A DNA stretch of 61,718 nucleotides, counting the filler, from Squatina squatina (Eukaryota), in NCBI GenBank assembly GCA_031763465.1. It is 4 parts of 4 records of this genome, joined end to end, with 100 filler letters (N's around TTAATTAATTAA, not from the genome) between each part and the next. Parts side by side here need not be neighbours in the genome. Positions count along the whole stretch, not along the records: positions 15,143 to 28,647 come from JARFOE010000013.1; 3 more parts are not named here. The stretch is one strand, 5' to 3'. The notes under the pieces are model-generated. The model worked only from the letters and a program-made list of their open reading frames with translations, made no database searches and was not told the origin of the DNA. The translations under genes were made by a program, and so were the position numbers. Shown piece by piece: positions 16,052 through 26,503 of this stretch; the first letter of the stretch is position 1, and each line of letters begins with the position of its first letter.

Positions 16052-16178
16052 CTCGACTGTGAGCTGCTTGTAGTAGCTAGACCCAAACATGAGGTTTTCA
16101 AGAGTCAGATTAGATGTATCTGGTTCCAGCTCCTGACCACTTTTACCAAGCCACGACCCCTTGCTTAGTCGAGGGAAA
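16052..16178 (-). CDS. FAM135B: FAM135B coding exon
   Basis: Acceptor tttttctgtcccctag| and donor |gtaag. The 127 nt give FPRLSKGSWLGKSGQELEPDTSNLTLENLMFGSSYYKQLTVE (recalled human FTRPGRGSWLGKGG...SLENLVFGAGY). Phase is compatible with the preceding exon. Confidence 0.85.
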
Positions 16179-16940
16179 CTAGGGGACAGAAAAAATGGGA
16201 GTAAAAATGAAGAATTGATATCGCTTGTTCCATGTTTTGGTCAATGGTGGGGGGAGATGATATTTGTTTATCATCCTTTAGGTGAGGGATGTTGGGTCTG
16301 GGTTTTCTCCCACCACCCCCCCTCTTTTCTTCCCATTTTTTGTGCAGCGAATTTAGTATCAAATATTCCCCAGATCAGGTACAACATCAGGTACATGCTG
16401 AGTAAAGCTTCTTTTACATCACCAACAGTGGGGCATAGCTGGGAGGTGGGGGTGAGTTAAATATGTATGCTAATGCAAACTTAGATCTTGCTTGATTGCC
16501 TTAGGAAGGAATTTCCTAGAGTTTTTTCCTGAAATTAACCCAAACAATTTTTTTTTGCTTCCTCAACCAACACATTTGCTCACAAGGCAAAACCTGACAG
16601 TGGTCAGCACCAAAGCATCCTCTGAATTATATTTGCATACAGAGTACTGTGCATCTGCTTGGTGCACAGGTGAGCTTAGGATCTCACAGTGAAGGTATAA
16701 GTTGCTGTGAACTTATGTTCTGCCTCTTCTCGGCATACCAGTGAATTAAGGTACCTCAACCTCTTCTTTGCAGCAGTTGTGTCTAATGGCATGTTGCTTT
16801 GGAAACAATCACACTTCTACTACTGCGCTAAGAATGGTTTGCAGCACTAAATGACTATACAATTGATTTTCTGGTAAGACATCTCGATAAAACATGTAGA
16901 AAGTAATGCTGGATTCTTTCAGTCAAGGTCACTACTGTAC

Positions 16941-17104
16941 CTTATCAAGGGCTGGTGTAAAGCAACAAGCGATGCATGTACAGTAACGGATATGACTGAG
17001 AGGTGGAAATAGTCAAACATGACAGGTNNNNNNNNNNCCTGGGATGGAAGTGAAGACCCCGCCTTCGGCTGCTGATCAAAGGTATTCCTGCAATATCACT
17101 CAGT
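16941..17104 (-). CDS. FAM135B: FAM135B coding exon (interrupted by a 10-N gap)
   Basis: Acceptor ttttcctgcag| and donor |gtacag. [22 protein letters not shown][gap][29 protein letters not shown] carries the FAM135 signature. Confidence 0.9.
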
Positions 17105-17587
17105 CTGCAGGAAAACAGAAAAAACGGTTTCAGACATAACACTTACTAGGATTCTTTAACATTGGGCAATGGTGAAAAGGCTCATAAAAATTCTGCAATA
17201 TGATACATGTACACTGAGAAATCATTCAAAAAACAGTACATCTTTAATAGAGAAAGCACAACCAATTAATTAAATTAATCAGCAAAGAAATCATAATTAT
17301 TCATGTTAGCGTAAACGGGGAATCGTGGTTACAGAGNNNNNNNNNNNNNNNNNNNNNNNNNNNNNNNNNNNNNNNNNNNNNNNNNNNNNNNNNNNNNNNN
17401 NNNNNNNNNNNNNNNNNNNNNNNNNNNNNNNNNNNNAACAGAGTCTTAGTTTAACACCTCATACAATAGATGGTACTTCTGACAATGCAGCTCTCCCTCA
17501 GTACTGTCATGAAGTGTCAGTCTAGACTTGTGTGGTCAAGTCCTGGGGAGAGGCAAGATGCCATCAACGACTAGCTTCGACACTTAA

Positions 17588-17654
17588 GGGGCCGAAATTC
17601 GATAACGCCCCAGGGGTGCTATCGGGAGATGCAAACGATGCAAATTTCACCCCC
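17588..17654. mobile_element. 67-bp miniature inverted-repeat element
   Basis: Imperfect TIRs GGGGCCGAAATT ... AATTTCACCCCC, with TTAA and TTAG flanks. Confidence 0.45.
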
Positions 17655-17823
17655 TTAGTATTCTGATTGGCTGCTGATGGAGGGAAAATAATAATCCTGA
17701 ACTGCCAATGATGTATTAGCAATAACAAGTAGATGGATGATCCACAATGGAGAATTATCCCATTTACCACCAATGCTTCATCAGAATTCAGTGTTTTTAG
17801 AGAGATGCGAAGATATTACTCAC

Positions 17824-17894
17824 TGCTGTTCAGAGTCAGTGAAATGCAGGTCAAGCTTCAGCTGAAAGTCTACTTCATTCAAAGCCTCTTCCAC
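17824..17894 (-). CDS. FAM135B: FAM135B coding exon
   Basis: Acceptor tttttattttgcag| and donor |gtgagt. The 71 nt give VEEALNEVDFQLKLDLHFTDSEQ(Q); DLHFTDSEQQ is the FAM135B-type ending. It splices in phase to the next exon. Confidence 0.9.
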
Positions 17895-18834
17895 CTGCAA
17901 AATAAAAAGAGGTTGCTCCCCTCAGTGAAAGAAATATAAAATTGCCACAATGGTTCAGTTGGTAATCAAAGTGTGGAATCAAACCACTTAGACCAAAATT
18001 CCCTGCTCAGTATCGAGTCAACTGATCTGCGCTCAGGCAAGTCGTTTTTGAAAATTTTAATAACAGAACATTTTGGCATTTACATCAGGTTGATGATTAT
18101 CTAAAAAAGGGGAAAAGTCAGGTTAACGCTTGGGCGTTTCTTCATCAGAAATCAATTCTGAGGTTTTCTTTCAAAAAAACTGACTGACCGTTATCCCTCC
18201 TGAAGCTACTTTAAATAGTTACATCAGCTTACCCTCCAATCCAATTAATACCTTGCCCACCTCTGGGATACCACAGAGCCTAGAACAGGGACAGATGTGA
18301 TAGTGAGCTAGCTTTATGTTGTAAATATGGAATACATGGCTGGTGAGCATCATTGTCGGTATGTGTTTTAGTTCACAAATTAACCGTGGTGTGTCGAGGA
18401 TTAGATTTCAATGGAACAAACTGGACCCTGTGAAGTTATGTTAAGTTCATACCATTATTTTTTTAAATCTGCATATTTAATTTCCTTTCAGGGGAATTTA
18501 TTTTTCATGAGAAAGACAGAATTACTGCAGGCTTCAAAATGTCAGAAAATGAACCGAACACAGCAACAAAAATAGAGGGTGCGATAAAAATTTTATTACT
18601 GTCCAGTTTATAGGCTTTCCTGTTGCATTGTATTTCTTTCTTTAAAAATCAGTTATTGTTAAGAAGGAGATCACCCTCACAGTGGCTTTGCAAACTGCAT
18701 GCTGATAATTTAGCTGTTTTTTTGGATGTGTCTTAAGAAACAAGAAAGAATCTAATCAACCCAACACTGTTGATTACAACAAGTGTAAGCGTTTGGGAAA
18801 ATAATCACCAAGCATGCCCAAGAGCTTGAAACAA

Positions 18835-24200: not shown

Positions 24201-24309
24201 CACAGCAACAACTGAAAACCCAGCAACGAAAGTAATGAGAAAGTGAGGAGAGCGCGGCCAACTGCACCAGCACCCGGAGTTGCAGTCAATTTTTTTTTGC
24301 TGACTGGTT

Positions 24310-24830
24310 GCAAGGTAGGTGGGACGAGAGCTGGTCTCTGGCCAGCATTTCCGCGGCCTGGAGGAGTCAGTTTTTCCACATTCATGTTGAGTGTGTGAGG
24401 TTGCAGCCCCTCTTCCATTATTTGAAGGGGCTGCTCCTCAAGTTCTGGTTGCACTTCAGTCCCACGCTCCTGATCTTTGGGCACCACCACGGTGCGTGTG
24501 TGTGTGTGGGCCAGCCAGAGGCCCTCCTCATGAGCCTGCTCCTGGGCTTGGCCAAGTTGGCCATCAATAGTTCCAGGCAGCGGACAACCGAGAGGGTGGG
24601 GGGTCGTTCGCCCCAACTCCCCAACTCCCCGCCTCTCTTCCGCGGCTACGTTCACGCCCGGGTGTCCCTGGAGATGGTGCACACGGTGTCCGCCAGTGCG
24701 CTTGAGGCCTTCTGCAACCAGTGGGCACCGGGGTCGGGCGGGGGAGGTACTGGAGTGCATCATCACCAGGGATAATAGGGTTTTATTTTGAGCACTGGGT
24801 TTAGTTAAGTTTTACTTTATAGTTTAATTA
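24310..24830 (+). mobile_element. Tx1-clade non-LTR retrotransposon 3' fragment
   Basis: FHIHVECVRLQPLFHYLKGLLLKFWLHFSPTLLIFG...LLLGLAKLAI...LFRGYVHARVSLE matches a Tx1 ORF2 C-terminus (zf-RVT region), followed by a T-rich tail. Confidence 0.75.
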
Positions 24831-25069
24831 GTTAATCACAGGTCAAAAGAGGGGTCTCTGGCCAGCTGCTCACACACCATTGGTCAGAACACAAGTGACG
24901 AGCTGCCAAGCTTGCAGGAGTTGCACCAACACCCAGAACTTTTCTAAATGTTTTAGAACCATTTTCTAAATGGTTTTCATTCACCTGTCAGCATGGAGGG
25001 CAGAACATTGGGAGATAAGAGGGGACAATTATATTTGGCACAGATGTTAAATGCTGCATCAAGGCAAAA

Positions 25070-25265
25070 TGCTGGCTTAATATTTAATCCCCAACCAACA
25101 TCACTAAAACAGATCATCTGACCATTGATCTCATTGCTGTTTGGGCAGTTCGAGACGGCCGCGTTTCCCCACAATAGTGGCTATACTTCAAAAATAGATC
25201 ATTGGCTCAGAAGCACTTTGGAACTGACTGAAATCATGCTGTGTGCTTTATTAGGGCAAGTTCTT
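25070..25265 (+). mobile_element. Deu-domain SINE copy, diverged
   Basis: Homologous to 22590-22787. Confidence 0.55.
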
Positions 25266-25475
25266 TAATTTTCNNNNNNNNNNNNNNNNNNNNNNNNNNN
25301 NNNNNNNNNNNNNNNNNNNNNNNNNNNNNNNNNNNNNNNNNNNNNNNNNNNNNNNNNNNNNNNNNNNNNNNNNTCTGACACAACAATTACACTGAATATG
25401 AATACCATACATCTGTATCTAATTGATAAGTTTACTATACTACCCGCCGGTCTAATCATATTTTCTTTTATCCAG

Positions 25476-25559
25476 CAGTGGAACACAGATTCAACTTCAA
25501 TGGGCTGGATGACAGCACTGTGTGTCCTAATATTAGGATTGGACAAGATGACTTACCAG
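25476..25559 (+). CDS. Collagen alpha-1(IX)-like, NC4 exon (GC donor)
   Basis: NAGNAG acceptor ttttcttttatccag|cag|. Encodes VEHRFNFNGLDDSTVCPNIRIGQDDLP(G); recalled human COL9A1 has LCPKIRIGQDDLPG. Donor is CCAG|gcaagc. Confidence 0.85.
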
Positions 25560-26373
25560 GCAAGCTTTCAGACTTTAAAAGGAGCTTTGCCCAATAATGT
25601 GCTTGATAGCTCTTGTGGCAGAGTACATAACTTGTATCTAAGGATCAACATTTGCATCAATCCAGGCTGACACAGATTCAGAGCAAATGAAATTTGAAGG
25701 GCCTCAAATTCTCTTTGGGATCCTGATTTTTTTTAAATATGAAAATGAACTCCTCATCAGCTAATGCACAGCAGCCAATCCCATTCCACTGCTGCAGTTG
25801 CTAGGGCCTGCAGCAGCCATTTTTCTTTCTCCTCCCCCCGCCCACTCAGTTGGGCTCTCCAACTACAAGTCTCACAATGAGGCTGACCCCTGAAATCCCC
25901 TGGGACGAATGTTGCCGCCAGAGATTACGGGAATCTGGCTGCCGTGGAGGAATGTCCTGGCCACTGTGCTATTTTGAGAGGGTGACCAGATGTCCCGGTT
26001 TTGCCGAGACAGTTCCGGGTTTTCAGGACAAGTCTCATCATTTACAGGTTTTCAATCTTCATGATAAACCTCGACATTTAGGTTTCCTGTGTGAATCAGA
26101 AGGTTTTAAAAAGGCTGCGAATCGTCGGGCTTGGCAGTGAATACTGATTGCTGACAATGCTGTAACAATCATCTCGAATTGTGCTGTTTTCAAGGCTTTC
26201 ATTTATTATGCATAGCAATAATTAATATAATGGTCACTCCTTTGGTGTGATGCCAAACATTCCTTATATATGTTCTGCAACCCATTTAGTAAAATGGGCA
26301 GAGTGGCATTGGAGATGCTCCATTTCATGACTGAAAACCCATCTGATACTCTTTTGCTTCCCTGTGCTCTCAG

Positions 26374-26503
26374 GATTTGATCTCATTACCCAATTCCAAT
26401 TGGATTCTATTCCACTGCGAGGGGTCAGGAGAGTGGAAGGTTCGACGCCACTTCAGATTGCCTTCAGACTTGACAGAGAGGCAAACTTTGGAATTCCAAC
26501 CAG
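26374..26503 (+). CDS. Collagen alpha-1(IX)-like, NC4/TSPN exon
   Basis: Acceptor cctgtgctctcag| and donor |gtagga. The 130 nt give (G)FDLITQFQLDSIPLRGVRRVEGSTPLQIAFRLDREANFGIPT(R); recalled human COL9A1 has GFDLISQFQ...VGSATLQVAYKL...FRIPTR. Confidence 0.88.

Follow-up and report, generated by a model that had tools for sequence, protein, structure and literature searches.

A collagen IX gene facing FAM135B in the shark Squatina squatina: a likely fourth chain retained from early vertebrate genome duplication

Genes and features of the locus

We analyzed a stretch of 61,718 nucleotides of DNA (the window) from the shark Squatina squatina (assembly GCA_031763465.1). Its positions 15143-28647, mapping to G000:C13:13636104-13649608, hold a FAM135B-type gene and, facing away from it, a collagen IX gene that is the subject of this study. 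On balance, we favor reading the collagen gene as a fourth collagen IX chain, sister to alpha3 and with the NC4 head retained, which would fill the alpha3 slot of the trimer and align fin fibers. The following features were assigned in the window.

16052..16178, minus strand: FAM135B-type coding exon of 127 nt, with an open frame and AG/GT ends
17038..17104, minus strand: FAM135B-type coding exon, its 3' part lost to an N run
17824..17894, minus strand: FAM135B-type coding exon of 71 nt
22053..22149, minus strand: first coding exon of the FAM135B-type gene, with its ATG at 22129; contigs of two probable RNA runs extend over it
23931..24088, minus strand: likely non-coding first exon of FAM135B, from contigs of probable RNA runs, 5' end unfixed
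25274..25373, no strand: 100-N gap concealing the first exons of the collagen gene
25476..25559, plus strand: exon of the col9a1c ortholog in which the mature chain and NC4 begin, with a GC splice donor and a possible alternative acceptor 3 nt downstream
26374..26503, plus strand: NC4 exon of the col9a1c ortholog, 130 nt, one codon shorter than in the canonical paralog

The FAM135-type exons stand head-to-head with the two collagen NC4 exons on one scaffold, C13, and the FAM135-type splice ends are AG/GT where uncut. This divergent arrangement, already proposed in the initial annotation, is corroborated by the exons, the splice ends, a joined contig of a probable RNA run, and published gene tables for bamboo shark and gar. 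The GC donor at 25560-25561 is backed by an exon joint (25556-26371) in a probable RNA contig of run X17, and the 814-nt intron between the two collagen exons is spliced out exactly in a probable RNA contig of a related organism, not Squatina squatina. The RNA status of all these sequencing runs is probable; none of the runs listed is recorded as RNA. A signal-peptide exon (86 nt, hydrophobic, 71% identical to a white shark protein) was found on the unplaced contig C599238, which has no physical link to C13. The 100-N gap at 25274-25373 therefore stands in for real sequence, and the spacing of the two genes in the assembly need not be the actual one.

On the FAM135B side, contigs of two probable RNA runs extend over 23929-24066 and 23929-24088 and end at a minus-strand GT donor. 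The depths in run X13 (40.3 = 30 + 10.3) fit a single contig over 23931..24088 and the ATG exon, the joint itself not being among the rows listed. Paralogous exons exist for 16052..16178 on the unplaced contig C538021 (17/42 residues identical) and for 17824..17894 at C4:5175632 on the plus strand (68% over 22 aa). Pfam returned no family for 3/3 FAM135 exons, and we assign the FAM135A and FAM135B labels from known human sequences plus synteny.

Orthologous group and domain layout

The exon 26374..26503, which contains the peptide quoted in the initial annotation, matches proteins of sharks and rays at 91-95% identity, with E values down to 1.7e-16, so the likeness is not a chance one. A search with the window exon retained 19 proteins from 29 candidates at 76-95% identity; the named ones all come from sharks, a ray, coelacanth, and ray-finned fish. 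In a tree of 21 NC4 rows, built with no outgroup and without the row for the C4 exon alone, which duplicates the joined row, the window gene and 16 other rows make up a group of 17 with 100/98 support that follows species relationships. This clade comprises sharks, coelacanth, bichir, sturgeon, paddlefish, and teleosts, while chimpanzee, sheep, one eel copy, and a second shark copy on scaffold C4 fall outside it. The earlier suggestion of a gene retained in a cartilaginous fish was thus too narrow, as coelacanth, bichir, sturgeon, paddlefish, and teleosts also have it.

One member of the clade is already known, the zebrafish gene col9a1c at the prp locus (LC546948; PMC10119692). Its published cloning primers encode two stretches: a 9-residue motif carried by 13/43 proteins of the set, all of them teleost or unnamed, and a C-terminus that resembles that of the catshark ortholog. 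These motifs mark the teleost portion of the clade, and the NC4 exons of the window gene are 64-70% identical to teleost members. We read membership in the col9a1c clade from the primer motifs and the NC4 tree. We regard the window gene as an ortholog of zebrafish col9a1c and as an ohnolog with near certainty. The equivalence to teleost col9a1b/c put forward initially is right for col9a1c, by clade and primer motifs, and wrong for col9a1b, as gar col9a1b adjoins fam135a. Thus, the gene is not shark-specific: it has been described in zebrafish and has an unnamed entry in a published orthology table.

Addition of three partial exons of other fibril-associated collagens with interrupted triple helices (FACIT) as outgroup lowered the clade support to 90/88 and left the base of the tree unresolved. 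Constraining the C4 copy to group with chimpanzee, sheep, and eel was not rejected (approximately unbiased test, p 0.312), which is no demonstration of a clade.

The NC4/TSPN domain is present in the window gene, for which the ESM Atlas yielded generic TSPN clusters only; its NC4 is 54-55% identical to that of mammalian alpha1. Of the domains after NC4, searches of this genome recovered three exons: that of NC1, one spanning NC2/COL1, and a single COL2 exon. COL3 and NC3 are seen in paddlefish and teleost orthologs and NC2 in catshark, bichir, and teleosts. The full collagen IX layout (signal, NC4, COL3, NC3, COL2, NC2, COL1, NC1), with cysteine in NC3, a helical NC2, and a cysteine pair in NC1, is pieced together from this genome and the orthologs. 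One element of it counts on the negative side, as contig C1052323 was placed in the window gene by 74% identity to a catshark model, not by linkage.

With COL9A1 (PDB 2UUR, 5CTD chain A, 9WXP) the gene shares the NC4 head (E 2e-49 for one exon), the exon layout, and the head-to-head position with FAM135. It differs in an NC2/COL1 exon two codons shorter, a longer NC1, its location in another paralogon, and an NC4 exon one codon shorter. The last difference had been noticed in the initial annotation and stands: 130 nt against 133 nt in the canonical gene of the same genome, and one gap against human 2UUR. The gene is not an ortholog of COL9A1, since it belongs to a separate clade and the position beside FAM135A and COL19A1 is taken by the C4 copy. 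Nor is it an ortholog of COL9A3, given its NC4, its chr8-type block, and another exon of the genome that matches alpha3 better. In NCBI, three of the orthologs are called 'alpha-3(IX)-like', whereas the name 'alpha-1(IX)' is given to most of the rest; with such names, expression data for fish 'col9a1' may mix two ancient genes.

The upstream side of the gene offers one further observation. In a sturgeon model (P0021, residues 14-43), an antistasin-repeat exon, which we take to be CRIM1-like, is fused ahead of the col9a1c ortholog and hints at a different upstream neighbor.

Paralogous blocks and origin of the gene

Beyond the window, the plus strand of C13 continues with an NC4 exon of 397 nt (13656800-13657196) and the final exon of the gene, for COL1/NC1. 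Further on, the minus strand carries COL22A1-like exons of collagen and TSPN type, tail-to-tail with the collagen IX gene. Scaffold C4 holds a mirror block, in which a second collagen IX gene (-) lies between COL19A1-like (+) and FAM135A-like (+) exons; KHDRBS and COL21A1-like exons occur in the neighborhood, and a family search for LMBR1 on C4 gave no match. The names COL22A1, COL19A1, COL21A1, and FAM135A/B for the shark exons are our assignments from known human sequences. Both blocks anticipated by the initial annotation, FAM135B-[collagen IX]-COL22A1-like and COL19A1-COL9A1-FAM135A-like, are therefore present, on C13 and C4, respectively.

The same pairs occur in the chromosome-level source data of Marletaz 2024 (PMC10972751), where the family is listed as OG_3006. 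A copy of class alpha1 stands beside FAM135B in bamboo shark (chr4, its gene number consecutive with those on the FAM135B side) and, unnamed, 70 kb from FAM135B on gar LG11. FAM135A has a copy of class alpha2 as its neighbor in bamboo shark, in Xenopus, and in gar, where the copy is named col9a1b; in chicken it adjoins COL9A1 (class nd), and OG_3006 has no chicken alpha1 row. Lamprey and hagfish each have a member within 0.2 Mb of a FAM135 gene, and these tables label the two collagen IX/FAM135 pairs as paralogs of the first duplication round (1R). Since the pair occurs in lamprey and hagfish and in two classes in jawed fish, it is older than jawed vertebrates; the first duplication separated the two blocks of the shark.

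The window gene thus has paralogous neighbors in the same order on paralogous chromosomes, and its duplication predates jawed vertebrates, as expected for an ohnolog of the two genome duplications. The proposal of a retained ohnolog survives: there are two blocks, a separate clade, and a second copy in the genome, and none of three contrary outcomes set beforehand was found (FAM135 exons grouping with FAM135A, a collagen inside canonical COL9A1 with no second copy, or unlinked genes in a contiguous assembly).

A scaffolding artifact, or a later COL9A1 duplicate moved beside FAM135B, would also place these exons together. The stretch consists of ten contigs of 0.3-1.9 kb with N runs between them, so the gene order is that of the scaffolder; no contig spans both genes, and one or more 100-N gaps separate them. 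This explanation is nonetheless very improbable, as the pairs recur in bamboo shark and gar, a collagen IX-FAM135 pair exists in lamprey and hagfish, the C4 block mirrors the arrangement, and the clade covers all sampled jawed fish.

A TRAPPC9 exon lies on the same scaffold at G000:C13:10361528, 3.3 Mb off, on the FAM135B side of the block. In human we take TRAPPC9 to be on the COL22A1 side, and the difference could reflect an inversion or a scaffolding effect.

Affinity of the chain: alpha3 or alpha1

The initial annotation described a second alpha1(IX)-type chain. The NC4 head agrees with that description, whereas the NC2/COL1 half, the 183-nt exon, and the chromosomal quadrant mostly point to alpha3. 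In scores against mammalian alpha3/alpha1/alpha2, the C-terminal half gave 141/110/103 bits for bichir and 94/74/72 for hake, the window gene's own NC2/COL1 exon gave 55/40/28, and catshark NC2 in identical host peptides gave 44/31/24. Alpha3 was the best match in 4/5 PDB comparisons of the C-terminal half. The NC2/COL1 exon is 183 nt long in the window gene and in the alpha3 gene of the same genome, as against 189 nt in its alpha1 gene; alpha2 likewise aligns two residues longer at NC2/COL1 in the bichir comparison.

COL9A1, COL9A2, and COL9A3 lie on human chr6, chr1, and chr20, and the window gene lies in a chr8-type block. Segments of human chr6, 1, 20, and 8 form quadrants A-D with the pairing ((A,B),(C,D)), according to Lamb 2021 (PMC8040251), whose supplement, as far as it was covered, lists no COL9A or FAM135 family. 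As the chr8 quadrant pairs with the chr20 quadrant, a chr8-type collagen IX copy should be sister to COL9A3. The NC4 likeness to alpha1 is no proof of sisterhood, since a shared NC4 can be ancestral. For the gene tree ((alpha1,alpha2),(alpha3,window gene)), the indel and the scores fit, the own-genome identity disagrees, and the rooted tree, which covers NC4, does not resolve its base. Alpha3(IX) is not known to carry an NC4 globule. With COL9A3 (PDB 5CTD chain C, 9WXP), the shark gene shares the best NC2/COL1 match, the 183-nt exon, and the paired quadrant; it differs in having NC4, and a separate alpha3 exon exists in the same genome, with the better alpha3 match (69 vs 55 bits).

Several observations oppose this assignment. 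The chains of 9WXP compared with the catshark NC2 segment favor alpha1 (46.5 against 43.0 for alpha3). In non-glycine identity, the own NC2/COL1 exon is closer to the alpha1 of the same genome (19/46) than to its alpha3 (11/46), and 6/7 fish orthologs lean to alpha1, bichir showing a tie. The indel contributes part of the alpha3 bit lead, so indel and bits are not independent, and OG_3006 groups the window gene with COL9A1 in the published source data. An alpha2(IX) exon was not found in searches of this genome. Perhaps the alpha1-leaning identity within the genome reflects a divergent shark alpha3 exon, which itself is 17/46 identical to alpha1. Taken together, the sequence comparisons, the exon length, and the quadrant pairing make the window gene likely to be a fourth chain, 'COL9A4', sister of alpha3 with the NC4 head kept, rather than a second alpha1.

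The proposed origin starts with one ancestral NC4-bearing chain beside FAM135 that would have given rise to four copies. The alpha-subgenome copies (COL9A1 and the window gene) would have kept NC4, and the beta-subgenome copies (COL9A2 and COL9A3) would have lost it. We hold this four-copy origin with subgenome-wise retention or loss to be probable; it would make NC4 a domain whose fate after the genome doublings depended on the subgenome.

Trimer composition and role in fins

Collagen II fibrils are linked to other matrix components by collagen IX, whose COL3-NC4 arm projects from the fibril. The NC2 domain picks and staggers the three chains; in mammals it takes the form of an asymmetric bundle of three chains, of which alpha1 and alpha3 are joined by a disulfide (PMC5126661). 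Because NC2 chooses the chains and that of the window gene appears mostly alpha3-like, the chain would occupy the alpha3 slot. The resulting trimers would be alpha1-alpha2-alpha4 and would hold two NC4 heads off the fibril, a composition predicted from sequence to which we assign slightly less than an even chance. Such a two-headed trimer could tether or space, coat, and align collagen II fin fibers.

The same ohnolog might instead act as a second alpha1, replacing COL9A1 in alpha4-alpha2-alpha3 trimers in fins and giving an ordinary one-headed collagen IX, in line with the initial annotation and with the zebrafish name. Retention of NC4 with 54-55% identity to mammalian alpha1, the own-genome exon identity (19 vs 11 of 46), and one PDB comparison agree with this, as does the retained NC2 cysteine, which is used by both alpha1 and alpha3. 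The alpha1 slot might hold even with alpha3 as the sister, since descent and slot can differ. We consider it unlikely, as the other 4/5 PDB comparisons, the 183-nt exon, and the quadrant pairing favor alpha3, and the shared NC4 is possibly ancestral.

Somewhat less likely again is a homotrimer, or a trimer with one other chain type, apart from cartilage IX and like an ancestral single-chain FACIT. An alpha1-like head combined with an alpha3-like NC2 has an ancestral look, and the zebrafish knockout has a fin phenotype of its own. The NC3 of paddlefish orthologs (P0023, P0040) carries an acidic Ser-Gly motif, a possible glycosaminoglycan site; alpha2(IX) has a glycan site of the Ser-Gly type in NC3. 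On the other hand, the catshark model lacks Ser at that position, and the mammalian NC2 is asymmetric and made of three chains.

Returning to the alpha3-slot reading, its functional part rests on zebrafish, where a Col9a1c fusion protein localizes to actinotrichia and the knockout disorders them. Fin fibers of cartilaginous fish are ceratotrichia. By analogy, the shark gene may act on ceratotrichia as col9a1c does on actinotrichia, for which we see an even chance. Against it stands that fin function was tested in zebrafish, that the shark gene is known here from sequence, and that the fin fibers of the two hosts differ. The relevance to cartilage matrix suggested initially finds no counterpart, as the only tested function is in zebrafish fin collagen fibers, the actinotrichia.

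The accessible text of papers on col9a1c deals with fin collagen and says nothing on origin, range, or chain type. Full-text literature searches turned up no passage presenting the gene as a fourth chain or a sister of alpha3, as a gene of sharks, or as one lost in tetrapods; such a treatment may exist in supplements outside these searches or in subscription papers, Nakagawa 2022 and Huang 2009 among them. The usual account of collagen IX has three set chains, and a fourth, present in every jawed fish sampled, poses the question of chain choice, namely which slot its NC2 takes.

Loss in tetrapods

A search with the coelacanth ortholog retained 21 proteins from 1575 candidates. Two of them come from tetrapods, and both are canonical COL9A1, with 48-52% identity against 63-76% for fish members. 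In OG_3006, chicken is without an alpha1 copy and Xenopus has none placed, FAM135B being kept in both (PMC10972751). We conclude that the gene was very probably lost in amniotes and, with less confidence though still probably, in all tetrapods. Arguing for caution, tetrapod sampling is thin, with just two tetrapod proteins and with bird and frog COL9A1 also absent from the matches, and one unplaced Xenopus gene in OG_3006 is unclassified. For lungfish, the 12 supplements covered, out of 22, gave no col9a hit.

A parallel is provided by the actinodins And1 and And2, fin-fiber components lost in tetrapods (PMC13120675, PMC13573005). They would share the fin-fiber role and the tetrapod loss with the shark gene but are non-collagenous and unrelated in sequence, and their loss is published whereas that of the shark gene's ortholog is inferred here. 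[quoted passage not shown] Its deletion from the FAM135B-COL22A1 interval at that transition, together with the actinodins, would make it a second structural fin-fiber gene lost on land. This scenario is speculative and rather unlikely as a whole.

Other collagen IX genes of the genome

The C4 gene is the canonical COL9A1, by its position beside COL19A1-like and FAM135A-like exons. An unplaced alpha1 exon of this genome scores 88 bits against mammalian alpha1, 53 against alpha2, and 44 against alpha3. Published tables list COL9A1, A2, and A3 in catshark and two Col9a1 genes plus A2 and A3 in skate (PMC13188829, PMC10115646), and four collagen IX genes are listed in skate fin RNA.

In the C4 NC4 exon (~5162180), an A run is one base too long, and the frame is shifted as a result. 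A contig of a related organism that covers this exon lacks the base and runs into neighboring exons, including the unplaced 133-nt exon. Canonical COL9A1 as a pseudogene was considered and rejected, since a contig without the extra base and spliced on both sides makes an assembly error the likelier explanation. Coverage of the C4 exon comes from 1/4 runs, and the uncovered runs carry no inference; contig depth in run X17 is 916 for the window gene and 13 for the C4 gene, and such depths cannot rank expression. The NC4 branch of shark canonical COL9A1 is long (0.45-0.52, against 0.05 for the window gene).

Elsewhere in the genome, long single open frames of 300-900 Gly-X-Y codons were seen at G000:C4:9236-9247 kb, at C203:2317 kb, and on C609747 and C346476; these are perhaps collagen X copies or egg-case collagens.

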